The notes under the pieces: model-generated | The model's input: only the letters and a program-made list of their open reading frames with translations | What the model was told of the DNA's origin: nothing | Database searches by the model: none | Position numbers and translations under genes: made by a program | Part shown: piece after piece, positions 24,036-64,000 of the stretch | How positions within the stretch are numbered: the first letter of the stretch is position 1 | How the letters are laid out: every line of letters starts with the position of its first letter | NCBI GenBank assembly: GCA_017937305.1 | Contig: JAGBDV010000020.1 | Coordinates: 57,309-121,308 of the forward strand | Direction of reading: 5' to 3' | DNA length: 64,000 bases | Source: Bacilli bacterium | GTDB taxonomy: Bacteria; Bacillota_I; Bacilli_A; ML615J-28; CAG-313

Positions 24036-24118
24036 TGCCAGTGGCGGGACTCGAACCCGCACGGTATTGCTACCAAAGGATTTTGAGTCCTTCGCGTCTA
24101 CCATTTCACCACACTGGC
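24033..24118 (-). tRNA. tRNA-Leu (anticodon CAA), 86 nt with encoded CCA.
   Basis: Reverse complement is GCCAGTG...; acceptor stem GCCAGTG/CACTGGC; anticodon loop CU-CAA-AA; long variable arm; T-arm GGTTCGAGTCC. Confidence 0.9.
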
Positions 24119-36664: not shown

Positions 36665-38809
36665 ATGAAAAAAATTATTTGGTTAAGTATCATAGTATTT
36701 AGTTTACTCAGTTTTAGTTGTTCTAAAAAGCAATATGAAGTAAAATTTATAGGATTAAATGGTGAAATAATTGAGTCTTTTAAATTATTCAAAGATGATG
36801 AAGTTAATTATCCAGAGGCTCCTACTATTGAAGGCTATGATTTTATTAAATGGGATAAAGAAATTAAACATATAAGTGAAGATACAGTTATTACTGCTAT
36901 TTATGAAATTAAAACATATAATGTTAATTTCTATGATGAAAATGATGAGTTATTAGAAACTTTAAAAGTTTTATATAATTCTAGTGTTTCTTATAATCAT
37001 TTATTTAATGTTGAAGGTTATAGTTTTATTGGATGGGATAAGGATTTATCACATATTACGTGTGATTTAGATGTTAAACCTTTGTTTAGTAAGAAAACTT
37101 TTTCGGTTAAGTTTTTTGATGAAGCTGATATTTTAATTAAGGAAGAAATAGTTGAGTATGGTTCATCTGCAACACCTCCAAGTGATTTATCTAAAGAAGG
37201 ACACTCGTTTATTGGATGGGATACTGAGTTTACTAATGTACTTGCTAATCTTGTAGTGTATCCAGTGTTTGAACCACAAAAATTTACAGTTAATTTTTAT
37301 GATGAATCAGGAAAACTTTTAAAAGAAGAAATTGTTGATTATGGGACATCTGCAGAAGGAATATCTGCACCAAATAAAAATGGATATAAATTTGTTAGAT
37401 GGGATGAAGACATTAACAATATTACATCTAATTTAGATGTTTATCCAATTTATGAAGAACTAACTTTTACTGTTACTTTTGTTGATCAATATGGAGATGT
37501 TTTAAAAGTAGAAGAAGTTAAGTTTAAACAATCAGCTACTGCACCTGATGCTCCAGTGTTAGATTATTATAATTTTAATAAATGGGATTTAGATTTTAGT
37601 GAGGTTATGAATAATATGACAGTTAAAGCAATCTATACAAAAGAACAACAAACTTATAGTATTTCTAATGTTAATTACTGGTTGCAAATTTTATCATCTA
37701 AATATAATATAAATAAAACAATTTTAACTCCTAGTGAAATTAATAATTATAATGATAAAATTTTAAGTGATTATGCAAAAACTGAAGTTATGGATGTTTT
37801 AAGTATTACTGGTACTAAGACTCAAAGTTATGTTAAAAACTTAATTACTTCTTATGCAAATATTAATAAATATACAATATATAATGATTCTACAAAAGTA
37901 GCTTTAACAACTTCTGAAAAAGATACCATATTATCTAATCGTAATTTAACAAGCGTTCCTTCAACTGTTACTGTTAAATATGGTATAATATCTGATTTTG
38001 CGTGGCTAAGAAGTTATCCGACAAATCATTATTCTAATAATTATAGCATGGATAGATTCCAAGAAACATCTCTTAATGTTGGTGAAGGAGTTGCAATATA
38101 CCATGAAAGTTTAGATAAACAGTGGTATTTTGTACAAGCTGAAAACTATAATGGATGGATTGAAAAGAAGTATGTCGCAGAGTGTAGTTATGATGAATTA
38201 GAAGCGTTCTTAAAACCTCAAAATAGTTTGCTTGTCATTAGTGATTATGTAACATTAGAATCATCGCATGTTCGTATGGGACAAGTATTCCCGTTAGTAT
38301 CTAAAACTTTAGATTCATATACTATGAAGTTCCCTACAAGAAATAGTGATGGTAAACTTGTGTTAAAAGATTTAACTGTTGCAAAATCTAATGATTATCA
38401 TGAAGGGTATTTAGATTATACATATTACAATGTATTTAACCAAGCATTTAAACTACTTGGTATTGATTATAGCTGGGGTGATAAAGATAAACTTGGTCGT
38501 GACTGTTCATCAACAATGAATGCGATTTATAAGTGTTTTGGTTTTATGATGCCAAGAAATACTTCTAATCAAGTTGCTATTCCAACATATGGATCAAAGG
38601 TTAGTGGTTTAACTAATGCAACAGTTAGAAACTATAAACCAGGATCATTAATTTTTACATCTAGTCATGTAATGTTATATTTAGGTGAAAATGAAAGTGG
38701 TATAGCATATTTACTTCACAATACTACATCTGGAAATGGAGAATGTATTTTACAATCTTTAAATGACTACGGTGGAAGTAGAATTAATGGTGTATTAAAA
38801 CTTCAATAA
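36665..38809 (+). CDS. Surface lipoprotein: 7 Flg_new repeats, a middle domain, and C-terminal SH3b + NlpC/P60 peptidoglycan endopeptidase domain.
   Basis: Lipobox LSFSC. Repeats (F/V)xGWD. C-terminus carries GRDCSSTMN (catalytic Cys) and SHVMLYLG (His) of NlpC/P60, preceded by an SH3b-like YGIISDFAWLRSYP. Confidence 0.75.
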   Translation: MKKIIWLSIIVFSLLSFSCSKKQYEVKFIGLNGEIIESFKLFKDDEVNYPEAPTIEGYDFIKWDKEIKHISEDTVITAIYEIKTYNVNFYDENDELLETLKVLYNSSVSYNHLFNVEGYSFIGWDKDLSHITCDLDVKPLFSKKTFSVKFFDEADILIKEEIVEYGSSATPPSDLSKEGHSFIGWDTEFTNVLANLVVYPVFEPQKFTVNFYDESGKLLKEEIVDYGTSAEGISAPNKNGYKFVRWDEDINNITSNLDVYPIYEELTFTVTFVDQYGDVLKVEEVKFKQSATAPDAPVLDYYNFNKWDLDFSEVMNNMTVKAIYTKEQQTYSISNVNYWLQILSSKYNINKTILTPSEINNYNDKILSDYAKTEVMDVLSITGTKTQSYVKNLITSYANINKYTIYNDSTKVALTTSEKDTILSNRNLTSVPSTVTVKYGIISDFAWLRSYPTNHYSNNYSMDRFQETSLNVGEGVAIYHESLDKQWYFVQAENYNGWIEKKYVAECSYDELEAFLKPQNSLLVISDYVTLESSHVRMGQVFPLVSKTLDSYTMKFPTRNSDGKLVLKDLTVAKSNDYHEGYLDYTYYNVFNQAFKLLGIDYSWGDKDKLGRDCSSTMNAIYKCFGFMMPRNTSNQVAIPTYGSKVSGLTNATVRNYKPGSLIFTSSHVMLYLGENESGIAYLLHNTTSGNGECILQSLNDYGGSRINGVLKLQ

Positions 38810-48267: not shown

Positions 48268-49348
48268 AAAGTTAGTATTACAAAATGGAAAAGAATTTAT
48301 AGGTTTAGGAAGTGGCGATGAAAAAGTAGCAGAAGTGGTATTCCATACTGGGATGATTGGTTATTTAGATATTGTTAGTAACCCATACTATGCTGGTAAG
48401 TTTGTATGTATGACATATCCTTTAATTGGTAATTATGGTGCAAGTGATGATGAATTTGGATCAAAAGATTATCATGTTGAAGGTTTTATTGTTAAAGATA
48501 CTGATTTTATCTCTTCTAATATGCGCTATTTAGATTCAATGGATGATTTCTCTATTGCAAATGATTTACCTATTTTATGTGGTATTGATACAAGAATGCT
48601 TGCTAAAGTTATTCGTGATGAAGGTAGTATGAAAGGTATTATTACTGATGTTGATACACCTATTGAAGAAGCATTATTAAAAATTAATGCATATACCCCT
48701 ATTAAAGGAATGGTAAAAAAATTAAGCACTAAACGTCCTAATATGGTTAAAGCAAATAAACCTAAATATACAGTTGTATGCTTAGATTTAGGATGTAAAA
48801 ATAATATTATTAGTGAACTTACTAATAGAAAATGTAATGTTGTAGTATTACCATATAATACTGATGCATCTAAGATTTTATCTTATCATCCTAATGCCAT
48901 TATTGTATCTAATGGTCCAGATGAACCTTCTGAATTAGAAGTTGTAGTTAACAATTTAAAACAACTTATTGGTCGTCTTCCTATTGCAGGGATTGGACTT
49001 GGTCATTTATTAGTTGCAAAAGCAAGTGGTGCTAAAATTAAGAAAATGAAATTTGGTCATCATGGTGCTAATCAATCTGTTAAAAATTTAGTTAATAAAA
49101 AGATAATTATTACTTTACAAGGTCATAATTATGAAGTAGATAGAGAATCACTTATTAATACTTCATTAAATGTTACACTTGAAAATTTAAGTGACTTATC
49201 AATTGAAGGTGTTTCAAGTAGTGAATTATTAGTTGTTACATCAGCATTTGATGCATTTGAAGCAAGTGCTGCGCCTATAGTTAAAACAATTTATGATGAA
49301 TTAATTGATTTAATTAAATCTTCAAAAGGAGGATCAAATAATGCCTAA
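48257..49348 (+). CDS. carA: Carbamoyl-phosphate synthase small subunit homolog with glutaminase catalytic Cys and His replaced (GIGLGH instead of GICLGHQ; DAFEAS instead of QGHPEAS).
   Basis: N-terminal CPSase small-chain domain is conserved. The GATase domain has [32 protein letters not shown], where E. coli has [32 protein letters not shown]. Confidence 0.85.
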   Translation: [363 protein letters not shown]

Positions 49349-52300
49349 ACGTACTGATATTCATAAAATATTAATTATTGGTTCTGGTCCGATTGTAATT
49401 GGTCAAGCAGCTGAATTTGACTATGCTGGTACTCAAGCTTGTCTTGCGTTAAAAGAAGAAGGTTATGAAGTTGTATTAATTAATTCAAATCCTGCAACTA
49501 TTATGACAGATAAACTAGTTGCTGATAAAGTTTATATGGAACCTCTTGATTTAGAGTTTACATCAAGAATTATTCGTTATGAAAGACCTGATGCAATTTT
49601 ATGTGCACTTGGTGGTCAAACTGGTCTTAATCTTTGTGTAAGTCTATCTAAAAAAGGCGTTTTAGAAGAATGCGGTGTAAAAGTATTAGGTACTTCTATT
49701 CAAGCTATTGAAGAAGCTGAAGATAGAGAAAAGTTTAAAAATCTTTGTCAAAGAATTGGTGAACCAATTATAGAATCAGATATTGCAAATACAGCAACAC
49801 AAGCTTTAGAAATTGCTGATAGAATTGGTTATCCAATTGTTGTTAGACCAGCATTTACACTTGGTGGTACTGGGGGAGGTTTTGCAAATAATGAAGCAGA
49901 ACTTACTGATTTAGCAGATTATGCATTAAGTTTATCTCCAGTTAATCAAATTTTAATTGAAAAAAGTGTTAAAGGATATAAAGAAATTGAATTTGAAGTT
50001 ATGCGTGATGGTAACGATACTGCAATTTGTATTTGTAGTATGGAAAACATTGACCCTGTAGGCGTTCATACAGGGGATTCAATGGTTGTTGCACCATGTC
50101 AAACTCTTACAACTAAAGAATTTAGTATGCTTAAGAATGCTTCTATTAAGATTATTAGAGCTCTTGGTATAAAAGGTGGTTGTAATGTTCAATTTGCATT
50201 AGATCCTGAATCATATGATTATTATGTTATTGAAGTAAATCCTCGTGTAAGTAGATCTAGTGCACTTGCATCAAAGGCAAGTGGATTCCCTATCGCTAGA
50301 GTTACTGCAAAAATTGCATGTGGACTTAACTTAGAAGAAATTGAAATTGCTTCAGGTCAAGCTGCATTTGAACCTACACTTGATTATGTAGTATGTAAAT
50401 TTGCAAGATTCCCATTTGATAAATTCAATGATGTTGCTAAAACATTATCAACACAAATGAAAGCAACAGGTGAAGTAATGAGTTTAGGTCGTACTTTTGA
50501 AGAAGCATTCTTAAAAGGTATTAGATCACTTGAAACTAAAGTTGATCATTTATATATGGAAAAGTTTAATAATGCAGAAACAAGTGATTTATTAAAACAA
50601 ATTGAAGTTCCAACTGATGAAAGAGTCTTCATGATTGCAGAACTATTAAGAAGAGATGTAACATGTGAAGAAATTTATGAAGCTACAAAGATTGATTTAT
50701 TCTTCTTAAGAAAAATAGAAAATATTATTTTATTTGAAAAAGAATTAAAAGAAGATCATGGTTTAGAAAACTTTATTAAAGCTAAAAAATTAGGTTTTTC
50801 AGATCAATATTTAGCTAAAATTATGAATATGTCTGAACTTGATGTTTATAAGTACCGAAAAGAAAATAATATCTATCCGGTATTTAAAATGATTGATACA
50901 TGTGCTGCTGAACTTGATACTTATACTCCTTACTTTTATTCAACATATGATACTGAAAATGAATCAGTAGTTTCTGATAAAGAAAAGATTATTGTTTTAG
51001 GATCAGGTCCAATTAGAATTGGTCAAGGTGTTGAATTTGACTATTCTACAGTTCACGCTATTTGGGCAATTAAAGAAAAAGGCTACGAAGCTATTGTTAT
51101 TAATAATAACCCTGAAACAGTTTCTACTGACTATTTAGTTACCGATAAATTATATTTTGAACCTTTAACAGTTGAAGATATAATGAATATCATCGATTTA
51201 GAAAAACCGAAAGGTGTTATCGTGTCTTTAGGTGGTCAAACTGCAATTAATCTTGCAGAAAGATTAGACACACTAGGTGTTCCAATTATTGGTACTGACT
51301 GCGAAGCTATTGCAAAAGCAGAAAATAGAAAATTATTTGAAGCATTAATGCATGAATTAGATATCCCTGAACCAGAAGGTAAAACTGTATTTAATCTTGA
51401 AGATGGTTTAGCTGCTGCTCATAAAATTACTTATCCTGTACTTGTTCGTCCTTCATATGTTCTTGGTGGACGTGCAATGGAAATTGTTTATGATGATGGT
51501 CATTTAGAAAAATATTTAAATAAAGCATTTGCACTAGACCCTAATCAACCTGTATTAATTGACAAATATGTAATTGGACGTGAAATTGAAGTTGATGCAA
51601 TTTGCGATGGTGAAGATGTATTTATGCCTGGTATCATGCAACATATTGAAGGAACTGGTATTCACTCAGGAGATTCAATTAGTGTATATCCTGCATATAG
51701 CTTATCTAAAAAAGTTGAAGAAACAATTAAAGATTATACTAGACGTTTAGGTCTTGCAATAGGTATTAAAGGTTTATTTAATATTCAATATATTGTTGAT
51801 TCAAATGATTTTGTTTATATTATTGAAGTAAATCCAAGATCAAGCCGTACAATTCCATATCTATCTAAATCTAGTAAGATTAATCTTGCAAAAATTGCAA
51901 CATTTGTAATGCTAGGTGAAAAACTAAAAGATATGAATTTAACTGAACCTACACCTAATATGTATTATGTTAAAGTCCCATGTTTCTCATTCTCTAAAAT
52001 TAGAGGATTAGATACAGTACTTTCTCCTGAAATGAAATCAACTGGTGAAGCTATTGGTTATGACCAATCGCTTAATCGTGCTTTATATAAAGCTTTAAAA
52101 GCTGCAAATATGAGAGTTATTAATTATGGTACTGTTTTTGTAACTTTATCTGATCAAACTAAAGAAGAAGCTCTTCCTTTAATTAGAAGATTCTACAATT
52201 TAGGATTTAATATTGAAGCTACTAAAGGAACTGGTAAGTTCTTAAAAGAACATGGAATTAAAACAAGAATTAAAAAGAAAATATCAGAAGGTAGTGAAGA

Positions 52301-52496
52301 AATCTTAGATTCATTAAGAAAAGGACATGTTTCTTATGTAATTAATACTGTTGGTCATGTTAGAACAAATAATGATGGTTTCTTAATTAGAAGAGTAGCT
52401 GCAGAAAATAATATTACATGTTTTACTAGTCTTGATACATTAAAAGCATTACTTGATGTTCTTGATGAAATCACAATTAAGGTAGGTACAATTTAA
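49341..52496 (+). CDS. carB: Carbamoyl-phosphate synthase large subunit.
   Basis: 1051 aa with two ATP-grasp halves (IIGSGPIVIGQAAEFDY... and IVLGSGPIRIGQGVEFDY...) and a C-terminal MGS-like domain. Confidence 0.95.
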   Translation: MPKRTDIHKILIIGSGPIVIGQAAEFDYAGTQACLALKEEGYEVVLINSNPATIMTDKLVADKVYMEPLDLEFTSRIIRYERPDAILCALGGQTGLNLCVSLSKKGVLEECGVKVLGTSIQAIEEAEDREKFKNLCQRIGEPIIESDIANTATQALEIADRIGYPIVVRPAFTLGGTGGGFANNEAELTDLADYALSLSPVNQILIEKSVKGYKEIEFEVMRDGNDTAICICSMENIDPVGVHTGDSMVVAPCQTLTTKEFSMLKNASIKIIRALGIKGGCNVQFALDPESYDYYVIEVNPRVSRSSALASKASGFPIARVTAKIACGLNLEEIEIASGQAAFEPTLDYVVCKFARFPFDKFNDVAKTLSTQMKATGEVMSLGRTFEEAFLKGIRSLETKVDHLYMEKFNNAETSDLLKQIEVPTDERVFMIAELLRRDVTCEEIYEATKIDLFFLRKIENIILFEKELKEDHGLENFIKAKKLGFSDQYLAKIMNMSELDVYKYRKENNIYPVFKMIDTCAAELDTYTPYFYSTYDTENESVVSDKEKIIVLGSGPIRIGQGVEFDYSTVHAIWAIKEKGYEAIVINNNPETVSTDYLVTDKLYFEPLTVEDIMNIIDLEKPKGVIVSLGGQTAINLAERLDTLGVPIIGTDCEAIAKAENRKLFEALMHELDIPEPEGKTVFNLEDGLAAAHKITYPVLVRPSYVLGGRAMEIVYDDGHLEKYLNKAFALDPNQPVLIDKYVIGREIEVDAICDGEDVFMPGIMQHIEGTGIHSGDSISVYPAYSLSKKVEETIKDYTRRLGLAIGIKGLFNIQYIVDSNDFVYIIEVNPRSSRTIPYLSKSSKINLAKIATFVMLGEKLKDMNLTEPTPNMYYVKVPCFSFSKIRGLDTVLSPEMKSTGEAIGYDQSLNRALYKALKAANMRVINYGTVFVTLSDQTKEEALPLIRRFYNLGFNIEATKGTGKFLKEHGIKTRIKKKISEGSEEILDSLRKGHVSYVINTVGHVRTNNDGFLIRRVAAENNITCFTSLDTLKALLDVLDEITIKVGTI

Positions 52497-53239
52497 TGGT
52501 AAAAGAGAATTTAAAAGTAATTTATAATAAACAAATTGCTCTTGATACATTTGAAATGAAATTAGAAACTCTTAATATGGCATCTTTTGCAAAACCAGGA
52601 ATGTTTATTAATATTTCATTAAATGATGCATCTAAATTATTAAAAAGACCTATTTCGATTTGTCAAATTGATAATAATCATTTAATCATTACTTATAAAA
52701 TTAATGGTGAAGGAACTAAAATTTTATCAACTTATCAAAGTGGAACATCTTTAGAAGCTATTGGACCACTTGGTAATGGATTTACTTTAGTTGAAAATAA
52801 AAAAACACTAGTAGTTGGTGGAGGAATTGGTGTTCCACCACTACTAGAGCTATCTAGAAATCTAAAGAAATTAGGTAATGAATTAGTAATTATTCTTGCA
52901 TTTAGAAATAAAGAAGCAATGATTTATTTAGATGAATTTAAAAAGCTAGGTGAAGTAGCAGTAACTACTGATGATGGATCATTTGGATTTAAAGGTAATG
53001 CACTTGATTATTTACATAATAATAATATTGAATTTGATACATTATATAGTTGTGGCCCTGAAATTCTTTTAAAGAAATTAGAAGAAAAATATCAAGGATT
53101 TGAAGGTTATCTATCTTATGAAGCAAGAATGGCATGTGGTGTGGGCCTTTGTCATGGGTGTGTAAAGGGTGAAAAACATTACTGTGTATGTACAGATGGA
53201 CCTGTATTTAAGTTAGGAGTTATCTATGGCGAATGTTAG
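52496..53239 (+). CDS. pyrK: Dihydroorotate dehydrogenase electron-transfer subunit (FAD/2Fe-2S).
   Basis: FNR-like fold and C-terminal [10 protein letters not shown]...C cluster. Confidence 0.85.
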
Positions 53240-54140
53240 AGTAAAATTACCAGGTCTTGATTTAAAAAATCCTATTATTCCAGCTAGTGGAACTGCAGGA
53301 TTTGGTGAAGAACTTGCTAGTATTTATGATTTAAGTGTTCTTGGTGGTATTATGATTAAAGCTACAAGTGTTAATCCAAAAAGAGGAAATAAAACACCAA
53401 GAGTTGCAGAAACATATGGTGGAATGCTTAATTCAATTGGTCTTGAAAATCCTGGCTTAGATGTTGTAATAAATGAAAAGTTACCATTTCTAGCTAAATA
53501 TGATACTTGTGTTATCGCAAATATTTGTGGTGATTCTATTGATGAATATGTAAAAGTAGCATATGAAATTAGTAGAGTAGATAATGTAGCTGCACTAGAA
53601 CTAAATATTAGTTGTCCTAATGTTCATGGTGGAGGGATTCCATTTGGAGCAGATGAAGAAACTGTTTATGAAATTACTAAAAGAGTAAAAGAAGCATCTA
53701 TTAAACCAGTTTATGTAAAACTTAGTCCAAATGTAACTGATATTGTTAAAATGGCAAAAGCAGCTGAACGTGGCGGTGCAGATGGTCTTTCTTTAATTAA
53801 TACACTTCTTGGTATGAGAATAGACTTAAAAACAGGACGTCCTATTTTATATAATAAAAAAGGTGGATTTTCTGGGCCTGCAATTAAACCTGTTGCAATA
53901 AGAATGATTTATGATGTTTATGAAGCAGTAAATATTCCTATTATAGGTATGGGTGGTATTGCAACTGTTGATGATTGTATTGAATTCTTAATGGCTGGTG
54001 CATCGGCACTTGGTGTTGGTACAATGAATTTAGTAAATCCATATATTTGTAAAGAATTAGTAGAAGAACTACCTCTTGCTCTTGCAAAGTATGGTTTTAA
54101 AGATATAAATGAGTGCATTGGTTATGCACATCGAAAATAG
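53226..54140 (+). CDS. pyrD: Dihydroorotate dehydrogenase catalytic subunit (class 1B).
   Basis: [18 protein letters not shown] (catalytic Cys) and GIATVDD blocks. Confidence 0.9.
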
Positions 54141-54154
54141 GAGGGAAGATTAAA

Positions 54155-54850
54155 ATGGTTATTATCGCATTAGATTTTAAAGATATGGAAACTTCATTAA
54201 ATTTCTTAGATAAATTTAATGAATCATTATATGTTAAAGTTGGTATGGAATTATTTTATGGTTCAGGACTTGAAATTGTAAAAGAAATAAAAAAACGTGG
54301 ACATAAAATCTTTTTAGATTTAAAACTTCATGATATTCCTAATACTGTTAAAAAAGCTATGACTAATCTTGCAAGACTTGGTGTAGATATTATTAACTTA
54401 CATGCTGCTGGTGGTTCAAAAATGATGGCTGCAGCACTTGAAGGTTTAACTGAAGGTTCAACTGGAAAACGTCCTATTTTAATAGCTGTAACTCAACTTA
54501 CTTCAACATCTAAAGAAATGATGAATACTGAACAACTAATTCCAGGTGAAGTGATTGATTCTGTAGTTAATTATGCAAAAGTTTCAAAAGAATCAGGACT
54601 TGATGGTATTGTATGTTCACCACTTGAAGTAGAAAAAGTAAAAGAAGCTTGTGGTAAAGAATTTGTAACTGTTACACCAGGAATTCGTCTTGCATCTAAT
54701 AATGCTGATGATCAAGTTAGAATTACAACACCAGCAAAAGCTAGAGAAATTGGCTCTGATTATATTGTTGTAGGTCGTCCTATTACACAAGCAGAAAATC
54801 CAGTTGAAGCATATCATTTAATTTTAAAGGAGTTTTTAGGAAATGAGTAG
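54155..54850 (+). CDS. pyrF: Orotidine-5'-phosphate decarboxylase.
   Basis: [18 protein letters not shown] and VVGRPI motifs. ATG 54155 with GGAGGGAAG RBS; the tracked 54113 start is a GTG inside pyrD. Confidence 0.9.
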
Positions 54851-55463
54851 TGTAGAAAAGAATTTACTTAAGATTAAAGCAGTATTTTTAAGTCCTAAAG
54901 CACCATTTACATGGGCTAGTGGAATTAAATCTCCAATTTACTGTGACAATAGATTAGTTTTATCATATCCAGAAGTAAGATGTGAAATTGAACATGCATT
55001 AGCAGATTTAGTAAAAGAAAAATTCCCAGAATGTGAAATTTTAATGGGTACTGCAACAGCAGGTATTCCTCATGCTGCATATGTTTCAGAATATTTAGGT
55101 CTTCCTATGGGGTATGTAAGAAGTGGAAATAAAGATCATGGTCGTCAAAATAAAATTGAAGGGCACTATGAAAAAGGTGATAAAGTAGTAGTAGTTGAAG
55201 ATTTAATCTCTACTGGTAAATCAAGTATTGAAGTAGTTAACTCTTTAATTGAAGCAGGTGTAGAAGTAATTGGTTGTGTTGCAATCTTCTCATATGGTTT
55301 TGATGAAGCACAAAGTGCATTTGACCAAGTAAATGTTCCATATTATTCACTTGCTAACTTTAATAATCTAGTTAAAGTAGCAGTAGAAGAAGGTTACATC
55401 GAACAAGAAGATCTAGAAGATGTATTAGAATGGAGAAAATCTCCACGTACTTGGAGAGCATAA
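54843..55463 (+). CDS. pyrE: Orotate phosphoribosyltransferase.
   Basis: PRPP-binding motif [13 protein letters not shown]. Confidence 0.9.
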
Positions 55464-55466
55464 TAA

Positions 55467-55509
55467 TAAAAAAAATTAAGTTCTAACTTACGTTAGAACT
55501 TATTTTTTT
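55467..55509. terminator. Bidirectional terminator between pyrE and the convergent DedA-like gene.
   Basis: A-run, then aagttctaac-ttac-gttagaactt, then T-run. Confidence 0.8.
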
Positions 55510-56257
55510 ATTTTAAATAGTTTTTTTAACCAATTACCAATTCTATTATATAAATTAACAAACCATTCTTGGATTTGATCTGCAAATTTATAAGAAATTA
55601 TAAATGCAATAATACCAAGTACTGATAATCCAGCAATTACTGCTATTCCCCATCCGTGTAGAGGAATTAGATTTCCACCATATACTAAAATTGTACAACC
55701 AATTGAAGTAATTCTAGTAAATATTTGAATAATACTAAATGTTTTAAATTTAATTTTAGAAATCCCTGCTACACTACAAAGTAAGTCATCTGGGAAAAAT
55801 GGGAATAAGAACATAAAGAATAATAGTACAGTTTCTCTACCTTTAATTTTTTCAAGGTATTCATCAACTTTTTCTTTATCTCCTGCAACCCAGTATACAA
55901 ACTTTTTACCAAGGATTCTACCTAGATAAAATCCAAGTGATCCTCCTAAGAACATTCCAATTAAAGAGTAGAAGAATGCTTCTAAGGGTTCAAATATTAG
56001 TGTGCCAGCAAGTATTGTAACCATTCCAGGAATTGGAATAAATGTTACTTGTAGGAATGATACTGCTATATACGCAAGAGGTGCCCAAATTCCTGCTTGA
56101 CTAACGATATCTCTAATTTCTTCTTTAGAAATATCTGTAAGGCCTAATGCTTTAAATAAAAAGTATAATCCGATAACTACTGCAATTAATATAATACCAG
56201 AAATTACAAGTTTTAGAATTGATTTTTTTGCTTCTTGACTAAGAGGTTTGATAATAT
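55500..56257 (-). CDS. TVP38/TMEM64 (DedA-like) family membrane protein; N-terminus extends upstream of the first ATG with no canonical start.
   Basis: The in-frame upstream translation (KPLSQEAKKSILKLVISGIILIAVVIGLYF...VTFIPIPG) is clearly family-like. Only ATT (56255) or ATC (56252) follow the AAAGGAG RBS (56266-56260). An A7 tract lies at 56223-56229. Confidence 0.6.
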
Positions 56258-56381: not shown

Positions 56382-57149
56382 ATGATTGGTAAAAATTTTC
56401 CAAAAGAACATATAATTGGAACTAATAATTTTAGTCATTTATTTATCATTATATGTTTCTTTATTCTTTCAATAGTACTTTCATATAAACTTAGTAAAAA
56501 AGAAGAAAGAATAATAAATAGATATTTAATAATTAGCACAATATACTTAGTAATTACTGAAATTGTTAAAATGACTTATCGCTTTATTAAAGTAGGAACA
56601 TTTAGTCATGTCTTCCCAATGCCTTTTTGTTTCTTATGTATTCCTGCTTTAATAATGTATTTTATTAATAATGATAAAATAAAGTATATTGCACGTGTAT
56701 TTTTATGTAGTGGTAGTTTAATGGGAGGAAGCCTTTATATTTTTATTCCTAATGGATCTATTGATAAATATCCATTATATCATGTAAATGCTATCCATGG
56801 ATTATCATTTCATTTTATAATGGTTGTAATTGGTCTTACATTATTATTTAAAAGAATGTATGTTCCTAAATTAAAAGATTTTAAATACTATTTTATGTTT
56901 ATGGGAACTTTTAGTGTTATTGCGTTAATATGTAATTATTATTCAGGAGGTAACGCGCTTTTCTTTGGTAATGATAGTGGTATTCCTTTTTTAAAAAAAG
57001 TTATTGAAAAATCACATTTATTACATGTAATAATAGTATTTTTAGGTGAAAGTATTTTATTATTCTTTATATTTTATGCGATTTATTCATTAATTATGAA
57101 TATAAGATTAAAATATTTAATAAAAAAAGAAGAATTACAAAAGAGCTAG
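56382..57149 (+). CDS. Polytopic integral membrane protein (YwaF/TIGR02206-like), function unknown.
   Basis: Seven predicted TM helices. No catalytic motif recognised. Confidence 0.4.
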   Translation: MIGKNFPKEHIIGTNNFSHLFIIICFFILSIVLSYKLSKKEERIINRYLIISTIYLVITEIVKMTYRFIKVGTFSHVFPMPFCFLCIPALIMYFINNDKIKYIARVFLCSGSLMGGSLYIFIPNGSIDKYPLYHVNAIHGLSFHFIMVVIGLTLLFKRMYVPKLKDFKYYFMFMGTFSVIALICNYYSGGNALFFGNDSGIPFLKKVIEKSHLLHVIIVFLGESILLFFIFYAIYSLIMNIRLKYLIKKEELQKS

Positions 57150-57177
57150 AATTCAAATTTTTGAATTCTAGCTCTTA
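57141..57177. terminator. Bidirectional terminator (17-bp palindrome around an EcoRI-like core).
   Basis: aagagctagaattcaaa-ttt-ttgaattctagctctt. Confidence 0.8.
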
Positions 57178-58473
57178 TTCATTAAATAATAATGTAATTT
57201 CAAATGTAGTTTTTGTAACAGCATAGTCAAGTGTAATGTTATTTCTTTTTGCGAATAATTCAATAGATTTTGTACCAAAACCATGCTCTTCTTTATCATT
57301 TGTTGGTAAATTATTTGTATCAAAACTAATATTACCATCATATTTATTTTTAATTTGTAAAATTAAACGTCCATTATTGTTTAGGAAGATAAATGTAACA
57401 GCTCTATTGTTCTTAAGCTTAAGGGATGCATTAATTGCATTATCTAAACAGTTAGATATTACGACTACGATTTCATTAGATGGAATTGTAAGTAGTTCTT
57501 CGAAGTTATTAATTTTAGTCTTAAAATTAATATCATTATTAATACATTGTTGTTCATAGTATTCAAGTACTGAATTAATAAGTGGATCATTACAATATCT
57601 TTTTCGTTTTGTATTTTCAATAGAAACATTATATGAATTAATTAATTCTTGTGCTTGTTCTATTTCGCCATTATTAATAAGTGTTGAAATAGTAACTAAT
57701 ACATGTTTCATATCATGTCTTAAAATTCTAAGTTCATTATCACTTTGAGCTTTAAGTTCTGAAATTTCAATTATATTTTCTATTTGTTTATTTAAAATCT
57801 CTGTATCAAAATTATTAATTAATTCTTTTTGATAACTTTTTAAAAACATATAAAATCCAGTAATTGAAACTGTATATACGCTTAATAATGCAAGACTAAA
57901 GATATTAATTTTAAGTACATTTTGTGTTGTAGTACTTATAATATTTTGGTATAGGCCAATTTCAGCAAACATTGCAACACCATAAAGAAGAAGAAGCCAT
58001 AACATTTTAGGAAGTGATGATTCAACAATATTATGTAGTTTATTATAGAAGAAATTTAAATATATAGCTGCTAAAGGGAAACAAGTAACATAGATAATCC
58101 CTCTATATAATATAGCGTTATCAGCAAACTTTAGACCAACTGCTTCAATTAATACAACAAAATATGTAAGTAAAAAGGCATTAACTATTCCTGTAAATAA
58201 AGATAATCCTTTTCTTTTTCCAATTATAAATACTAATAGTGCTTCAGGTATAAAAATACCTAAAATATTCCAAATTAATACTTTTTCAAGTTTGAAAAAT
58301 TCAAATATGTATGAATTAATGATTAGTATTGCAAGAGTAATTGGAATAACAAGTAATAATGTTTTAATTTTAGAAAATCTACTACCTGATACAATTAGTA
58401 ATAATAACATACTAAATGCAGCAGTAATTAATGTTGGAATTAACTCAAATATCTGTGTCATATTATTCACCAA
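57175..58473 (-). CDS. Sensor histidine kinase, AgrC/HPK10-like (polytopic N-terminal sensor + GHKL ATPase).
   Basis: About six N-terminal TM helices. H-box LRHDMKHVL. N-box/G-box region NCLDNAINAS ... GFGTKS. Confidence 0.75.
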   Translation of the reverse strand: MVNNMTQIFELIPTLITAAFSMLLLLIVSGSRFSKIKTLLLVIPITLAILIINSYIFEFFKLEKVLIWNILGIFIPEALLVFIIGKRKGLSLFTGIVNAFLLTYFVVLIEAVGLKFADNAILYRGIIYVTCFPLAAIYLNFFYNKLHNIVESSLPKMLWLLLLYGVAMFAEIGLYQNIISTTTQNVLKINIFSLALLSVYTVSITGFYMFLKSYQKELINNFDTEILNKQIENIIEISELKAQSDNELRILRHDMKHVLVTISTLINNGEIEQAQELINSYNVSIENTKRKRYCNDPLINSVLEYYEQQCINNDINFKTKINNFEELLTIPSNEIVVVISNCLDNAINASLKLKNNRAVTFIFLNNNGRLILQIKNKYDGNISFDTNNLPTNDKEEHGFGTKSIELFAKRNNITLDYAVTKTTFEITLLFNE

Positions 58474-59194: not shown

Positions 59195-59341
59195 AAGTAT
59201 TACCTCTTTTTCTACTTATATTATACCACTATTTTTAATATTAGTCAAATTGTAAATAAATAATAAATTAAATCAAAAAAAGTAAAAAAAGATAACCTAA
59301 AAAGGAAAAAATTGTTAATTAATTTACAAAATAATTTTCAT

Positions 59342-59371
59342 ATTTTCACATTTAAATGTCGAATTTTCACA
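59342..59371 (+). promoter_or_regulatory. LytTR-type operator: two perfect 9-bp direct repeats ATTTTCACA separated by exactly 12 bp, plus a third imperfect copy (ATTTTCATA, 59334-59342).
   Basis: Repeat 1 at 59342-59350, repeat 2 at 59363-59371. Ends 5 bp before the -35 of the downstream promoter. Confidence 0.7.
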
Positions 59372-59376
59372 CCAAA

Positions 59377-59405
59377 TTGACTATTAAGTACTAATTTGTT
59401 ATAAT
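59377..59405 (+). promoter_or_regulatory. Near-consensus sigma-A promoter: TTGACT, 17 bp, TATAAT.
   Basis: -35 at 59377-59382 and -10 at 59400-59405. Drives the 59480.. operon. Divergent from the LytTR regulator gene. Confidence 0.65.
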
Positions 59406-59479
59406 ATGAAAGTAAAGTGAGAAGAGTATACACATCTATCACTTTTTAAAACTTAAACTAATATAAAGGAGAAATTATT

Positions 59480-60247
59480 ATGAAAAGAAAAAGTTTAACA
59501 ATGATTCTATGTTTATTAACTTGCTTATCATTAGTAGGCGTAGGGTTCGCGTCTTGGGTTATTAGCTCAGGCGATAAAGAAACTGTATCGGGAAATGTTG
59601 TTGTAGATACTGTTTCGGATGAACGTATTGTTCTTACAGTTACTGAACCAGGTGTTAAGGATATTAAATTTGTTGGTCCATCATCTACAACTACTGCAGA
59701 TGGTTGGTTAACTACTGATAATAAAGCAGCTAACTTAGAAGTTACTTATGCTTGTACAGTTTCTAAAAAGACTGGTTCGTTTACATCTACTAGCGAAATT
59801 GCAACACCTTTAGCCACTTTAGTAGAACCTACAGAGAGTACATATACTACTGCTAAAACAAAAGGTTGTTTTGAATTGTCAACAGATGTTGGTGTTACTG
59901 CAGCTACATTAGATAAATTCTATCAAGGTATTAAAATTTCTACACCTACTCTTGAAGATGGCAAAATCAAGTTTAACGTGACAGTTCAATATAAATGGGG
60001 TTCTGAATTCGGTGGAATTAATCCGTTTGATTATTACAATGAATTAAAAACTGGTGTAAATCCTACATTTGTTAGAGACGTTAATGCAACATGTGGAGAA
60101 GCTGTAGATACAATTTCAGCTGAAGACGCTACTTGGGGAGATCATGCTTATTATTATTTAGATTTATTATCAAAATTAGATAGTAATGGTGCTACAGAAG
60201 GTGGTTTATTAAGTTATAGTTTAACTATTCAAGTTGACTTTGCTTAA
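59480..60247 (+). CDS. Secreted TasA-sized protein (255 aa) with SipW-cognate-like signal peptide; paralog 1.
   Basis: MKRK-hydrophobic-GVGFASWVISSGD (the TasA family has GGTWAAFND). Ser/Thr/Val-rich beta-region. C-terminal KWGSEFGGINPFDYYNE is shared with the next gene. Confidence 0.6.
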   Translation: MKRKSLTMILCLLTCLSLVGVGFASWVISSGDKETVSGNVVVDTVSDERIVLTVTEPGVKDIKFVGPSSTTTADGWLTTDNKAANLEVTYACTVSKKTGSFTSTSEIATPLATLVEPTESTYTTAKTKGCFELSTDVGVTAATLDKFYQGIKISTPTLEDGKIKFNVTVQYKWGSEFGGINPFDYYNELKTGVNPTFVRDVNATCGEAVDTISAEDATWGDHAYYYLDLLSKLDSNGATEGGLLSYSLTIQVDFA

Positions 60248-60285
60248 TAGTTATTTATAAAAATAATTTAGGAGGCTAGAAAATT

Positions 60286-61062
60286 ATGGCTAGATTAACA
60301 AAGAATTCTTATAAGAGAAAGATTATATTATTTGGTTTATTAGTTTTCATGTCTATCGCATTAATTTCTACAGGTTTTGCTGCATGGGTTATGTCAACTA
60401 ATGCAACAAATGATGATGCTAATGGAAATGTTTCTGTTGGTGTTGTTAAAGATGCAAGTTTAACAATTTCTAATGTTGTTATTTCATCTACTGAAAAGAG
60501 CTTTAGATTTGAACCTTTAGCTTCAGATGAATCAGGTCGTGTAAGATATGATGATGAAGAAGGTTTATATGAAAACTTAAGCATTACTGTTACAGGTCAA
60601 GTTGCACCTATTGAATATTTAGGTGAATTAAAGTATGAACTTGTTATTCCTGAATCTGTTAAGAAAGCTGCTGATGCTGGTTACATTGTTTTACCAGATT
60701 CTGCTACTTATCAATATCAAGATGGTGAAGGAAACACTGTTAAAGTTGGCAGTGGTACAGTACTTGCTGTTAGCGGAACTGAAGGTACATTTAATTTCAC
60801 ATTTACAATTGATTTTAAATGGGGTGCTAAATTTGGCAATATGAACCCTGGTTTATACTATGATACTGATGCTGCTGGAATGTTGATTTCAGATGCAGAA
60901 TGTAAGAAAGAATTACAAGATTTTAGAGCATTATTATATGGTTATGATGCAGAAATGACTGCTGCTGGTAGTGATGAAGCAGCTAGAGATACTGTTGCAG
61001 AAAATCATAAGAATGATGCTGGTCCAGTATTTACAGTATTAATTACAGCTAAGAGTAACTAA
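60286..61062 (+). CDS. Secreted TasA-sized protein (258 aa) with SipW-cognate-like signal peptide; paralog 2.
   Basis: ...STGFAAWVMSTNA, GNVSVGVVKDASLTI (paralog 1 has GNVVVDTVSDERIVLTV) and KWGAKFGNMNPGLYYDTD. Confidence 0.6.
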   Translation: MARLTKNSYKRKIILFGLLVFMSIALISTGFAAWVMSTNATNDDANGNVSVGVVKDASLTISNVVISSTEKSFRFEPLASDESGRVRYDDEEGLYENLSITVTGQVAPIEYLGELKYELVIPESVKKAADAGYIVLPDSATYQYQDGEGNTVKVGSGTVLAVSGTEGTFNFTFTIDFKWGAKFGNMNPGLYYDTDAAGMLISDAECKKELQDFRALLYGYDAEMTAAGSDEAARDTVAENHKNDAGPVFTVLITAKSN

Positions 61063-61074
61063 TAACTTATAGTT

Positions 61075-62079
61075 ATGAAGTCTACAGAAATTATTTCGCT
61101 CATAGTTACTTTCATTGGGATATTTAGTTTTGCTACTATATTTACAATTTTATATGGTAATTATGCATCAATGTCAATTAAAGAATTAAAGTCTGGTAAA
61201 CGTGACATTGAATTGATTGATGAAGTAGTCTATGAAAGACAAGAAAAAGTTAAAAGACGTAATGAAATAGTTGTTACTATTAAAAATGTGTTCTTTTATT
61301 TAACTTTATTTATTGTTGTACCTGTTTTTATCTTTTCACTTATTAGTAGATTTACTAATAATGCAATAATGATAGGTGATAGAACAGTTATGGTTGTCGC
61401 ATCTGGTTCAATGAGTTATAAAGCTGAAACTAATGATTATTTAGTAACTAATAACTTAAACGATCAATTTTCAAAATATGATATTATTATTCTAGAAAAA
61501 GTTGACAGTGCGGCTGAACTTAAAGTTTATGACACTATTGCTTTTGTAAATGATAAAGGTACAAATATCATTCATAGAATTAAGTCAATTAAATATGATG
61601 GAAGTTATGAAACTAGAGGCGATGCTGTAGAAGTAAGTGATAGTTATAATCCTGTTTTTCCTGATGTTATCGGAAGATATACAGGAAAAAAGATTGGTGG
61701 TATAGGAATGTTTGTTTTATTCTTCCAATCTTATGCGGGGATTATTACAATTGTTTCACTTGTTTATTGTTTATTAATGATTGATCGAATGTCTGAGAAA
61801 ATAAACAAGGTACAATTAGAAAGAATTGAGTACTTAGAAAAAGCTTTAGGTTTACTTGATGAAACTGAAGCTAAAGCTATGCAAGCTGCTTATTCTGAAA
61901 CTATTTATTATAAAGGTTTTGCTTATCAATTTAAAGATGGTGAATTCATCTCTAAAGATGAAATTAAGGATAGCCTTTATTTAGAAAAGTCTTCAAATAC
62001 AATTATTAAAGAAGTTACAAGTGGTGACTCTTGTGTTATTGAAGAAGAAATAATCAAAAATGACGAACAGGGAGAATAG
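61075..62079 (+). CDS. Signal peptidase I, SipW (archaeal/ER) type, with two extra N-terminal TM helices and a C-terminal TM plus coiled-coil extension.
   Basis: VVASGSMS (Ser motif), IIILEK, NIIHRIKS (His motif), RGDAVE. Confidence 0.7.
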   Translation: MKSTEIISLIVTFIGIFSFATIFTILYGNYASMSIKELKSGKRDIELIDEVVYERQEKVKRRNEIVVTIKNVFFYLTLFIVVPVFIFSLISRFTNNAIMIGDRTVMVVASGSMSYKAETNDYLVTNNLNDQFSKYDIIILEKVDSAAELKVYDTIAFVNDKGTNIIHRIKSIKYDGSYETRGDAVEVSDSYNPVFPDVIGRYTGKKIGGIGMFVLFFQSYAGIITIVSLVYCLLMIDRMSEKINKVQLERIEYLEKALGLLDETEAKAMQAAYSETIYYKGFAYQFKDGEFISKDEIKDSLYLEKSSNTIIKEVTSGDSCVIEEEIIKNDEQGE

Positions 62080-62083
62080 TGTT

Positions 62084-63883
62084 ATGAAAAAACCCTATTA
62101 TACAAGAAAAGATTTGATTGTTATCTCTTTAGCTGTATTCTATGCATTTGTTTTAATCTTTGTTGGAATGTGTTTAGAAGGAACATATTCATTCGTTAGT
62201 AGTAAAAATCCAATTGCTGCAATGGGTAAAGGATTAAGTTTCAAAACAATAGAATGTGGATTATCTGGATTTATTTGCTTAGTACTTGTTGCATTATATG
62301 TTGCAGTATTTACAGCAGTATTCATGTATGAAAGAAGATATGCAATCGTAACTAACAAGAAAACTTATGGAATTAAGATGATTATTACTTACATCTTATC
62401 ATTCCTTGCATGTGGTGTTATTTCTTTAGGTGTTGGTATTTTAATTCAAAAACCACTTACATGGGATAATATCAGTCTTGTATTATTATATGTTGGTCAA
62501 TCTTTAATTCTAACTACAATTATTTATGTTGTATTATTTGCTTTATTTGGTGGTGTAATTATGTTTGTTGTCAATTTCTTATTAATTGATAAACCATTTA
62601 AAGCATTTGAAGATAATACAGAAATTAAAGTATTAGAAGAAGATGATCCTGAAGTTGATATTACAAGTAGTTTTGATGCAAATATTGATGGTGCTACTGC
62701 TACTGGTGGTGTTGCTGCTGCTGGGGCTCCTGGTGCTGCAGGTGCATCTGAAAGTATCGTTCGTTCTGCTGAAGAACTTGACGATCGTGAAAAAGTATTC
62801 CCAGCACTTTCTACAGTTGATGTAGATTATGATGGGTATGTAGTTGATCATATCGAAAGTGAACAATTCTCTTTAGAAGAAATTTGTGTTAAGTTTAGAA
62901 ATTATCTTGCTAAAGAAGAAAAATTATACTTTGATATTGATACAATTCGTTATTTTATCAGTGCTTTAGGTACTTCTCACTTTATGATTTTAGAAGGCTT
63001 ATCTGGTACTGGTAAATCAAGTTTACCACGTTATTTTGCTAAATTTATTAATGCTGAAGTATTATTTATTCCAGTTCAAGCAACTTGGCGTGATAAGACT
63101 AACCTTATTGGTTTCTTTAATGAATTCTCTAAGACTTATACTGAAAGTGAATTCTTAATTAAACTATATAAAGCTAATTACAACCCTGATGTTCCTCATT
63201 TCTTCGTACTAGATGAAATGAACATCTCGCGTGTTGAATATTACTTTGCAGATTTCCTATCAGTTCTTGAATATCCAGAAGAAGATTGGAAATTAAAGAT
63301 TATGCAATTACCATATAACTTTATTCCACCTGCAAAATTAGAAGAAGGTATTATTCAAATACCTAATAACTCATATTTTGTTGGTACAGCTAATAAGGAT
63401 GACTCAACATTCACTATTACTGATAAAGTATATGACCGTGCTATTTCAATCGATTTTGATAATCGTAATGATGCATTTACTGTAAATGAAGAAGTATCAA
63501 CAATTACTATTAGTAATTCACATCTTCAATCACTATATAATGCAGCTAAGAATGAAGATGCTAACCGTATGAATGATGCTGATTATGCTAAATTCACTAA
63601 GATTACTGATTATATTTATGATCAATTTGATCTTACATTCGGTAACCGTATCTTAACACAAATTGACAACCTAGTGCCTATTTTTGTGGCATGTGGTGGT
63701 ACAAAAGAAGATGCTTTAGACTTCTTATTATCACGTAAAGTTATTTATAAACTAGAAGGTCGTTTTGAAGAATATGTTAAAGGTGCTTTAAAAGAACTTC
63801 TTGCTTTAATTGAAAAGACTTACGGTGCATCTGTTTTAAAACGTAGTGAAAAGACTATTAAAAGTTTAATGAGAAGGTTGTAA
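62084..63883 (+). CDS. Membrane-anchored McrB-family (AAA_5) AAA+ NTPase: ~5 TM N-terminal domain, Gly/Ala-rich linker, C-terminal McrB-like domain.
   Basis: Walker A GLSGTGKSS. Walker B/McrB motif FFVLDEMNISRVEYYFADFLSVLE (E. coli McrB has IIDEINRANLSKVFGEVMMLME). YFVGTANKDDSTFTITDKVYDRAISIDF matches McrB YIIGLMNTADRS...RRRFSF. ATG 62084 with GGGAGAA RBS. Confidence 0.65.
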   Translation: MKKPYYTRKDLIVISLAVFYAFVLIFVGMCLEGTYSFVSSKNPIAAMGKGLSFKTIECGLSGFICLVLVALYVAVFTAVFMYERRYAIVTNKKTYGIKMIITYILSFLACGVISLGVGILIQKPLTWDNISLVLLYVGQSLILTTIIYVVLFALFGGVIMFVVNFLLIDKPFKAFEDNTEIKVLEEDDPEVDITSSFDANIDGATATGGVAAAGAPGAAGASESIVRSAEELDDREKVFPALSTVDVDYDGYVVDHIESEQFSLEEICVKFRNYLAKEEKLYFDIDTIRYFISALGTSHFMILEGLSGTGKSSLPRYFAKFINAEVLFIPVQATWRDKTNLIGFFNEFSKTYTESEFLIKLYKANYNPDVPHFFVLDEMNISRVEYYFADFLSVLEYPEEDWKLKIMQLPYNFIPPAKLEEGIIQIPNNSYFVGTANKDDSTFTITDKVYDRAISIDFDNRNDAFTVNEEVSTITISNSHLQSLYNAAKNEDANRMNDADYAKFTKITDYIYDQFDLTFGNRILTQIDNLVPIFVACGGTKEDALDFLLSRKVIYKLEGRFEEYVKGALKELLALIEKTYGASVLKRSEKTIKSLMRRL

Positions 63884-63887
63884 TAAT

Positions 63888-64000
63888 ATGAAAATCATCG
63901 AAGAAAACAAACTAAAAGAAATTATCCAAATTATTAATGATTATCATAATGATAATAAAAAGATAAAAAAATTCTTTAATAATTTAGATTCACTTACATT
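63888..64000 (+). CDS. 5' end of the next ORF (partial); possible partner of the McrB-like gene.
   Basis: ATG 5 nt after the preceding stop; MKIIEENKLKEIIQIINDYHNDN... runs to the window edge. Confidence 0.3.
   Translation, partial: MKIIEENKLKEIIQIINDYHNDNKKIKKFFNNLDSLT

Follow-up and report, generated by a model that had tools for sequence, protein, structure and literature searches.

What is a relative of the restriction GTPase McrB doing in the membrane of a gut bacterium, directly behind a SipW-type signal peptidase and two secreted proteins? The locus that raises this question occupies positions 59195-64000 of a 64-kb window (the whole stretch of DNA analysed, with a G+C content of ~29%) on contig JAGBDV010000020.1 of a Bacilli bacterium. 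An earlier note on this stretch had described four co-oriented, tightly packed genes and proposed a regulated system that assembles a secreted fibre or surface appendage. We find that these genes form the 5' part of a cassette, about eleven genes long, that is vertically conserved among uncultured gut Firmicutes. The system is widespread and uncharacterised, and it links an McrBC-derived GTPase to SipW-dependent surface-protein biogenesis. The observation in the earlier note is confirmed and its interpretation is partly supported: a surface assembly machine is favoured, whereas its filamentous product is something we infer, and the suggested kinship with the fibre protein TasA was not borne out.

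A conserved cassette of about eleven genes

The cassette genes that fall within the window are the following (lengths in amino acids, aa).

59480-60247, + strand: P1, a hypervariable secreted subunit of 255 aa, with a predicted immunoglobulin-like (Ig-like) beta-sandwich plus helices
60286-61062, + strand: P2, a conserved paralogous subunit of 258 aa with the same N-terminal signal (STGFAAWVMS)
61075-62079, + strand: signal peptidase I of the SipW/ER-archaeal (ER, endoplasmic reticulum) type, 334 aa
62084-63883, + strand: membrane-anchored McrB-like GTPase of the NxD clade, 599 aa
63888-64000, + strand: 5' end of an McrC-like gene, cut by the window end; 37 codons are present (63888-63998), and the product has 418 aa on the source contig

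The open reading frames (ORFs) of P1, P2, the peptidase and the GTPase lie on one strand, tightly packed, where they had been placed before. The longest ORF for the GTPase starts at 62060 (607 aa), and the form found in databases has 599 aa. A hypothetical protein with exactly the P1 sequence is on record for a 'Bacilli bacterium' metagenome-assembled genome (MAG). On a 227-kb scaffold that carries the same locus (L001), the operon extends past the window end by six more genes. The unit is therefore larger than the four genes first described. Ten cassette genes are present on the source contig, where the genes after that of the GTPase include those for the McrC-like DUF2357 protein, an ABC-2-type ATPase, a permease with 12 transmembrane (TM) segments, an 825-aa protein and a protein with a Flg_new repeat. 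Other carriers, L014 among them, have one more P1-like gene behind the Flg_new gene, which brings the total to about eleven, an ABC-2 exporter and large surface proteins included. No terminator-like sites were found between 58400 and 64000.

Conservation was surveyed with a profile of the GTPase against one genome per GTDB species, of which at least 559 encode a relative. The synteny counts rest on the best 80 of these species, labels from L001 to L095 denote individual relative loci, and the count for each component takes in only loci with enough sequence on the relevant side. Gene order is identical in L001-L010 and in all loci of the best 80 species, and within L001-L010 it holds even where P1 is only 27-46% identical. 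In 73 of 74 loci the gene directly upstream of the GTPase gene is SipW-like, the sole locus scored without one having a SipW-like match elsewhere, and P1-like genes lie upstream in 56 of 56. The McrC-like gene is found in 77 of 78 loci, the ABC ATPase in 74 of 75, the 12-TM permease in 71 of 72 and the large protein in 62 of 63. The same order in every related locus examined puts the arrangement far beyond chance. Thus, the link between sipW and an McrB-like gene that the earlier note had sought in other genomes is conserved, and its proposal survives the discovery of a co-located McrC-like gene.

All of the best 80 species are represented by gut MAGs, sampled from human, deer, goat, yak, rabbit, horse and rumen and labelled as Bacilli, Mollicutes/Acholeplasmatales/Anaeroplasma, Erysipelotrichaceae, Christensenellaceae, Clostridia and similar taxa. 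In L006 the cassette is intact between different flanking genes, which indicates that it moves or persists as a block. Directly upstream in the window is a pyrimidine biosynthesis operon (49341-55463, + strand) encoding the large subunit of carbamoyl phosphate synthetase, a PyrK-like protein, dihydroorotate dehydrogenase, orotidine monophosphate decarboxylase and a phosphoribosyltransferase. The junction between the pyr operon and the cassette is kept in the related species L004, L008 and L010, which favours vertical inheritance. A mobile or phage-borne element was rejected, as no relative was found in a collection of 2.9 million viral contigs.

The signal peptidase and its predicted substrates

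The peptidase carries the motifs SGSM and IIHRI. Its homology to the SipW/ER-archaeal family (S26B) is clear, although its scores fall short of both curated cut-offs: it matches the SipW model at 1.7e-11 (44 bits against 190) and the model of archaeal-type signal peptidase I, sigpep_I_arch, at 6.5e-11 (42.3 against 51.85 bits), with no match in Pfam. Both models are matched by 17 of 17 sampled orthologs (best 1.8e-20), in which S112 and M113 of GSM, H167 and R168 of IIHR, G182 and D183 of TRGD, and D189 are invariant. Judged by these residues, the protein is a catalytically intact Ser/His/Asp enzyme of the SipW type in which His replaces the bacterial Lys, in line with the dedicated peptidase beside a cognate secreted class that had been proposed. 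Its TM segments span residues 6-24, 72-90 and 212-230, and a helical tail forms the C-terminus. Conserved motifs mark the loop between TM1 and TM2 (GKRDIELID) and the tail (YYKGYAYxF). Given a catalytic domain outside the cell, this loop and the tail would be cytoplasmic, on the same side of the membrane as the GTPase and the McrC-like protein.

P1 and P2 are paralogs (BLASTP E=1e-11, 25% identity) whose N-termini end in GFASWVIS and GFAAWVMS, as had been read earlier. Residues G20, V21, G22, F23, A24, W26 and I28 are invariant across 62 family sequences, and the N-terminus is far more conserved than the remainder of P1-like proteins. The consensus of 125 unique N-termini consists of a K/R-rich start, about 16 hydrophobic residues and the motif [ST][TV]-G-F-[AS]-[AS]-W-[VIL]-[IM]-S. 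GFxxW occurs in 179 of 209 P1-like ORFs, and most others have variants such as GFAAF or GLA.W. Cleavage is predicted after G-F-A (GFA24 in P1), with G at -3 and A or S at -1 obeying the -3/-1 rule; cleavage one residue later is disfavoured because Phe would then occupy -3. The mature subunits that result from the predicted cleavage have no membrane anchor, LPXTG motif or lipobox. Additionally, P1 and P2 were considered as lipoproteins and rejected as such, the Cys residues of the hydrophobic region being neither conserved nor part of a lipobox.

The predicted cleavage site is followed by about ten variable residues and then by a conserved alternating strand, GN[VI]xVxTVxD. The AlphaFold model, a confident one (pLDDT 86.7), shows a beta-sandwich with helices and leaves residues 22-49 unstructured, so that residues 30-49 are conserved, yet lie outside the fold of the monomer model. 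The modelled fold is Ig-like, of a kind typical for adhesins and pilins, and not TasA-like. The P1/P2 family is without any sequence relative in Pfam, NCBIfam or the PDB.

Between one and six P1-like copies, usually two, precede the peptidase gene in each locus, and a divergent extra copy often follows the lipoprotein gene. In one species (L088, 309-4945), six tandem P1-like genes stand ahead of the peptidase, which indicates that tandem duplication enlarges the subunit array. In L021 (13113-15173) and L028 (14264-16426), genes directly downstream of the cassette encode proteins of 687-720 aa that share the N-terminus of the small subunits, GF[AS]xW[IV]I. No Pfam domains were found in these proteins, which are candidates for tip or adhesin components.

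Hypervariability of the first subunit

Across species, P1 is the least conserved component of the cassette. Median identity to the window proteins is 72% for the ABC ATPase, 54% for the GTPase (80 species), 47% for the large protein, 46% for the SipW-like peptidase, 44% for the 12-TM permease, 36% for the McrC-like protein, 35% for P2, orthologs of which are present in most loci, and 29% for P1. The first subunit gene is also allelically hypervariable within species. Between the two strains of L008 and L010, P2, SipW, the GTPase, McrC, the ABC ATPase, the 12-TM permease and the large proteins are 98.8-99.8% identical, whereas P1 is 44% identical, or 35% outside its first 50 residues. Major pilins, flagellins and S-layer proteins vary in like manner. 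The pattern is that of a major subunit which is abundant and exposed and whose alleles are replaced under diversifying selection, and we count the strong promoter and ribosome-binding site ahead of the P1 gene toward its abundance.

A membrane-anchored GTPase and its McrC-like partner

The GTPase has four strong TM segments, which a Gly/Ala-rich linker joins to an McrB-type AAA+ domain at the C-terminus, and it is thus the polytopic McrB-family membrane protein that the earlier note had recognised. The domain matches AAA_5 (E=0.0015) and the McrB structure 6hz4 (E=0.0012, over 177 residues that include the signature). Walker A (GLSGTGKS), Walker B (VLDEMN) and the signature N437-K-D-D are invariant in orthologs. 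The TM segments and the linker after them make up the N-terminal 170 residues, where neither Pfam nor NCBIfam detected a DNA-binding domain. When 1.84 billion representative proteins were searched for the GTPase domain, 8137 relatives came up, and 730 of these reached E<=1e-30. The signature reads N-x-D-[DE]-S in nearly all of the best 150, and the forms NQDES and NRDES among them exclude an NxxD reading. By its signature, therefore, the GTPase belongs to the NxD (CoCoNuT/CoCoPALM) branch, which is defined by a shortened NxD motif usually followed by D or E (Bell et al. 2024).

The McrC-like protein keeps the GTPase-activating DUF2357 domain. In alignments of 17 and of 50 sequences, no invariant D...(D/E)xK was found C-terminal of residue 225, and the only C-terminal invariants are the four Cys of a zinc ribbon and W412. 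No nuclease family was found in the protein with Pfam, and a PDB profile search returned zinc ribbons only. No helix in an AlphaFold2 model from database homologs is longer than about 28 residues, and the model shows no long coiled coil. As far as these alignments and domain searches tell, the GTPase-activator pair of McrBC is retained, and DNA binding and cleavage are gone. A canonical restriction McrBC was rejected given the missing DNA-binding domain, the missing nuclease and the synteny with secretion genes.

Relatives of the GTPase fall into three architecture classes: the 4-TM type of the window, a 1-2-TM type and a TM-less type with a long N-terminus. In L091, a 2-TM relative, a gene for a secreted Flg_new protein is followed by those for a SipW-type peptidase, the GTPase, an EAL-domain protein and a DUF2357 protein. 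The EAL-domain gene (3396-4373), encoding a cyclic di-GMP (c-di-GMP) phosphodiesterase, is inserted between the McrB-like and DUF2357 genes and hints at a link of the GTPase clade to c-di-GMP/biofilm signalling. The relative in L093 lies between a 2750-aa leucine-rich-repeat surface protein and a 790-aa coiled-coil McrC-like protein, and that in L095, a 1-TM form, has a zinc-ribbon McrC-like partner and is located among glycosyltransferases. All three contexts are those of the cell envelope.

Exporter and surface proteins

Among the downstream products, the ABC-2-type ATPase is DrrA/GldA-like, and the permease (530 aa, 12 TM segments) matches 12TM_1 weakly. The large protein of about 820 aa is signal-anchored and has beta-helix-like repeats that we read in its sequence alone; no PDB sequence relative and no significant Pfam or NCBIfam family was found for it. 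The gene with the Flg_new repeat comes after it and encodes a lipoprotein in other carriers. In L014 (17898-18998) this lipoprotein has the lipobox LAGC and three repeats, each opening with a short collagen-like G-x-x-G-x-x-G, and the collagen-like stretches PKGDTGSTG, PKGEDGKDG and QQGEDGRG precede its Flg_new repeat.

Flg_new repeats are also found elsewhere in the window. An ORF of 2498 aa (60-7556, + strand) has five Flg_new (Listeria-Bacteroides) repeats, three Big_2 domains, a Big-like domain and an N-acetylmuramoyl-L-alanine amidase domain, and from these domains its product is a very large surface protein with a peptidoglycan hydrolase. Two more Flg_new-bearing secreted enzymes are encoded at 28616-30943 and 36665-38809 (both + strand), the one with a GDSL lipase/acylhydrolase domain and the other with SH3b and NlpC/P60 peptidoglycan endopeptidase domains. 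Flg_new appears to be the common surface module of this genome, the cassette lipoprotein included.

Regulation in the lineage of the window

The control elements and the two-component system that adjoin the cassette are these.

59377-59405, + strand: sigma-A-type cassette promoter, TTGACT-17-TATAAT, matching at 11/12 positions plus an upstream TG
59220-59248, - strand: promoter-like site of the regulator/kinase operon, TTGACT-17-TATAAT, 11/12 plus an upstream TG, a consensus match only
59342-59371, + strand: LytTR-type operator, two exact ATTTTCACA 9-mers (at 59342 and 59363) with a 21-bp period, stopping 6 bp short of the -35 element
59466-59472, + strand: strong ribosome-binding site AAGGAGA, 7 nt ahead of the P1 start codon
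58463-59194, - strand: LytTR response regulator (Response_reg 2.3e-11, LytTR 7.8e-11), divergent from the cassette
57175-58473, - strand: polytopic GHKL kinase, AgrC/HPK10-like (HATPase_c_5 3.6e-14), with about six N-terminal hydrophobic segments

The two TTGACT-17-TATAAT sites are the best promoter-like sites of the region, and the sigma-A promoter with its LytTR operator, the latter an exact repeat, was found as first described. AAGGAG upstream of P1 is conserved in related loci. The best NCBIfam matches of the regulator are BtsR, LytR and AgrA, all far below cut-off. Gene callers start the kinase at 58461, which gives 428 aa, and its gene is directly followed by a convergent gene of the TMEM164 family.

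Other loci with a two-component system (L004, L006, L008/L010, L017, L021, L023 and L066) also have a 9-mer pair with a 21-bp period upstream of P1, adjoining a TTGAC-type -35 element where one is recognisable. The repeat is of the type TTCACA in the window, L004 and L008, TTACACA in L006, TTGTGCAAAA in L023, TATTGCA in L021, ACAC/GCAC in L066 and ATAGGTAAA in L017. Pairs that co-vary between lineages at a fixed period support a real LytTR operator. The LytTR two-component pair itself is present in only four of the 45 species loci with enough upstream sequence. LytTR control, as claimed for this locus, is supported here by the operator and the adjacent two-component system, but it is a lineage-specific add-on and not a general feature of the cassette.

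The apparent peptide-quorum control of the earlier note is unsupported. No AgrB/AgrD-like or pheromone/peptide-export genes were found in the neighbourhoods that carry the two-component system, although very small unannotated peptide genes could escape such a search, and peptide quorum sensing was rejected for want of pheromone or processing genes. The system resembles AgrCA, ComDE and PlnBCD in its polytopic HATPase_c_5 kinase, its LytTR regulator and its 9-bp repeats at a 21-bp period abutting the -35 element. It differs from them in having no AgrB/AgrD or peptide-export genes adjacent, and the two-component system accompanies a minority of cassettes.

Proposed function and alternatives

We put at about even the chance that the cassette makes, processes and assembles variable cell-surface subunits through a GTPase-coupled, SipW-dependent machine, the product of which would likely be a filament. 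In this scheme, the subunits would enter the membrane through Sec as signal-anchored precursors and then be cut after GFA by the SipW-like peptidase. A cytoplasmic engine of McrB hexamer and McrC, tethered at the membrane, would probably contact the conserved loop and tail of the peptidase, and GTP hydrolysis may be coupled through these cytoplasmic parts to subunit release or polymerisation. The post-cleavage strand GN[VI]xVxTVxD is a candidate donor strand, and the fit of the conserved but unstructured residues 30-49 of the model to donor-strand complementation is suggestive only. P1 would be the major exposed subunit, whereas P2 and the terminal paralog would be minor ones, and a platform or anchor for the surface filament or polymer could be provided by the ABC-2 exporter together with the beta-helix protein and lipoprotein. 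In the lineage of the window, the LytTR two-component system would switch the operon on.

Several points weigh against this proposal. Cleavage, polymerisation and the coupling of GTPase to peptidase are all steps that we infer, and the unstructured N-terminal strand could be a mere linker. The P1/P2 family showed no similarity to TasA, camelysin, sortase pilins or type IV pilins. To our knowledge, TasA-type fibres need no nucleoside triphosphatase (NTPase), so that the role proposed for McrBC is without precedent. Additionally, the closest curated match of the GTPase is PADLOC PDC-M26A (2.4e-43), a phage-defence candidate, and the wider clade of the GTPase, CoCoNuT, is predicted to be defensive (Bell et al. 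2024).

The same components could instead serve a sorting or export pathway for a non-polymeric variable coat or for adhesins, in which the GTPase and the ABC proteins provide quality control or energy and no filament is formed. The SipW-like enzyme would recognise P1-like and larger proteins by their common N-terminus, and these would be released or stay on the surface one by one, in the manner of S-layer proteins or antigens. Such a pathway would agree with the occurrence of one signal on proteins of 200-300 aa and of about 700 aa, with the surface-antigen-like hypervariability of P1 and with the lack of detectable similarity to any known fibre subunit. However, mature subunits without membrane anchor, LPXTG motif or lipobox require something to hold them on the cell, and several paralogs, one variable and the rest conserved, with a conserved extended N-terminal strand are the pattern of a filament system; we regard such a pathway as rather unlikely. 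It is improbable that the cassette serves phage defence or another conflict in the way of McrBC/CoCoNuT systems. Infection would then be sensed by the membrane-anchored GTPase and the McrC-like protein, which would act through effectors in the membrane or outside the cell, and the secreted proteins would play the part of decoys, receptor masks or toxins. A defence role is suggested by the PDC-M26A match and by the NxD signature of a branch predicted to be defensive, and hypervariability is typical of conflict genes too. Yet no nuclease, HEPN or other effector domain was found in the cassette, the McrC-like protein is without the PD-(D/E)xK motif, and the other components give no specific PADLOC match, those of the ABC ATPase being generic. 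Rigid synteny in 80 species and the same pyr-adjacent site in related species are unlike patchy defence islands, and the absence of the cassette from the viral contigs also speaks against defence.

It is very improbable that the locus is a true homolog of tapA-sipW-tasA, with P1 and P2 as divergent fibre proteins of the TasA/camelysin fold and the McrB-like gene as a mere neighbour. The peptidase is of the SipW type, the subunits are of TasA-like size, and G-F-A/A-W (the slash marks the cleavage site) resembles the T-W-A/A-F of TasA. The likeness of G-F-A/A-W to the SipW-cognate signal class is by eye only, however, and at E<=0.1 none of the 62 family members matched the TasA/Peptidase_M73 or SipW-cognate models of NCBIfam, in a library release not confirmed to include TIGR04088. 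A PDB profile search with the family returned nothing, and in every locus the peptidase gene is inseparably tied to those for the GTPase, McrC and the ABC transporter. The fold comparison, made against solved structures, largely refutes this homology.

A bolder reading, which we consider possible but somewhat doubtful, is that the cassette represents a hitherto overlooked class of Gram-positive machinery for surface filaments or for the assembly of surface proteins. A former McrBC restriction engine, stripped of its DNA-binding and nuclease parts and anchored in the membrane, would act as GTP motor together with a SipW-type peptidase and an ABC-2 transporter to assemble Ig-fold subunits, of which the major one is allelically hypervariable. 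On this reading the machinery, widespread in uncultured gut Bacilli and Clostridia, would be a functional analogue of type IV pili in which every part is unrelated.

Relation to known systems

The literature on a combination of SipW with McrB that we found is limited to one paragraph of the CoCoNuT paper, which links the NxD McrB branch to signal peptidases and 'pilus assembly' (Bell et al. 2024). The paper gave the name CoCoPALM to such systems and deferred their description to a future paper (Bell et al. 2024); we found no follow-up on CoCoPALM and nothing on PDC-M26. Contrary to the earlier judgement, the combination is not wholly undescribed, since that paragraph already hints at it.

The cassette shares with CoCoPALM an NxD GTPase signature followed by D or E, a membrane anchor, an McrC (DUF2357) partner and linkage to a signal peptidase, and the 2-TM relative L091 has exactly that layout. 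In contrast to the FtsB-like single TM segment and coiled coil of CoCoPALM, the cassette GTPase is a polytopic 4-TM protein with no long helical region before its GTPase domain. On inspection of the model alone, the McrC-like protein is without a long coiled coil, whereas that of L093 is a 790-aa coiled-coil McrC. The cassette also always adds P1-like subunits, an ABC-2 exporter, the ~820-aa protein and a lipoprotein. The 4-TM anchor and the fixed extra genes suggest that the cassette is a variant of the barely described CoCoPALM-type systems.

With the tapA-sipW-tasA operon of B. subtilis and the sipW-bsaA genes of C. perfringens, the cassette has in common a dedicated signal peptidase of the ER/archaeal type whose gene adjoins those of its secreted substrates, several of them paralogs, a small residue at -1 and -3, an aromatic residue at +2 and a likely product that is matrix or appendage. 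Its subunit, however, is an Ig-like sandwich with helices and not the jellyroll of TasA, and SipW-cognate and camelysin models miss it. The cassette peptidase has an extra N-terminal TM segment and a long, presumably cytoplasmic tail, and the NTPase pair and ABC transporter, both absent from TasA systems, are obligatory neighbours here. McrBC itself (E. coli, 6hz4; T. gammatolerans, 6ut5) likewise has an AAA+ GTPase with Walker A and B motifs and an Nx(x)D signature. The cassette differs in having four TM helices in place of the DNA-binding domain, an McrC-like protein that is without PD-(D/E)xK and ends in a zinc ribbon, and a context of envelope and secretion instead of restriction-modification.

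The likeness to type IV filaments (pili, Com pseudopili and archaella) is an analogy of logic only: a dedicated peptidase, paralogs that share a hyper-conserved hydrophobic N-terminus, a membrane-associated NTPase with polytopic partners, a variable major and conserved minor subunits, and large proteins with the same signal. No component is homologous. The peptidase is of the signal peptidase I type and not PilD, the NTPase is McrB-like and not PilB or a secretion ATPase, GFxxxE is lacking, and the cleavage site of the cassette lies after the hydrophobic segment instead of before it.

If our proposal is correct, a motor from a restriction enzyme has been exapted for envelope biogenesis, and a new entry would stand beside the sortase, chaperone-usher, type IV, type V, curli and TasA routes to appendages. 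The cassette argues that the NxD branch of McrB is not purely a defence family, and it opens CoCoPALM systems, named in 2024 and never characterised, to concrete tests. Its carriers, at least 80 species-level genomes, are uncultured Firmicutes of animal and human guts and include Mollicutes-like lineages with little-known surfaces. As P1 behaves like a major variable surface antigen, the system bears on the host range of phages, on IgA targeting and on colonisation at the level of strains.

Neighbouring genes

Between the pyr operon and the two-component system lie genes for a DedA/VTT-domain membrane protein (55500-56024, - strand) and for a putative acyltransferase of the TMEM164 family (56382-57149, + strand), which travel with that system in close relatives. 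The sole tRNA of the window is a tRNA-Leu (CAA) at 24033-24118 on the - strand.

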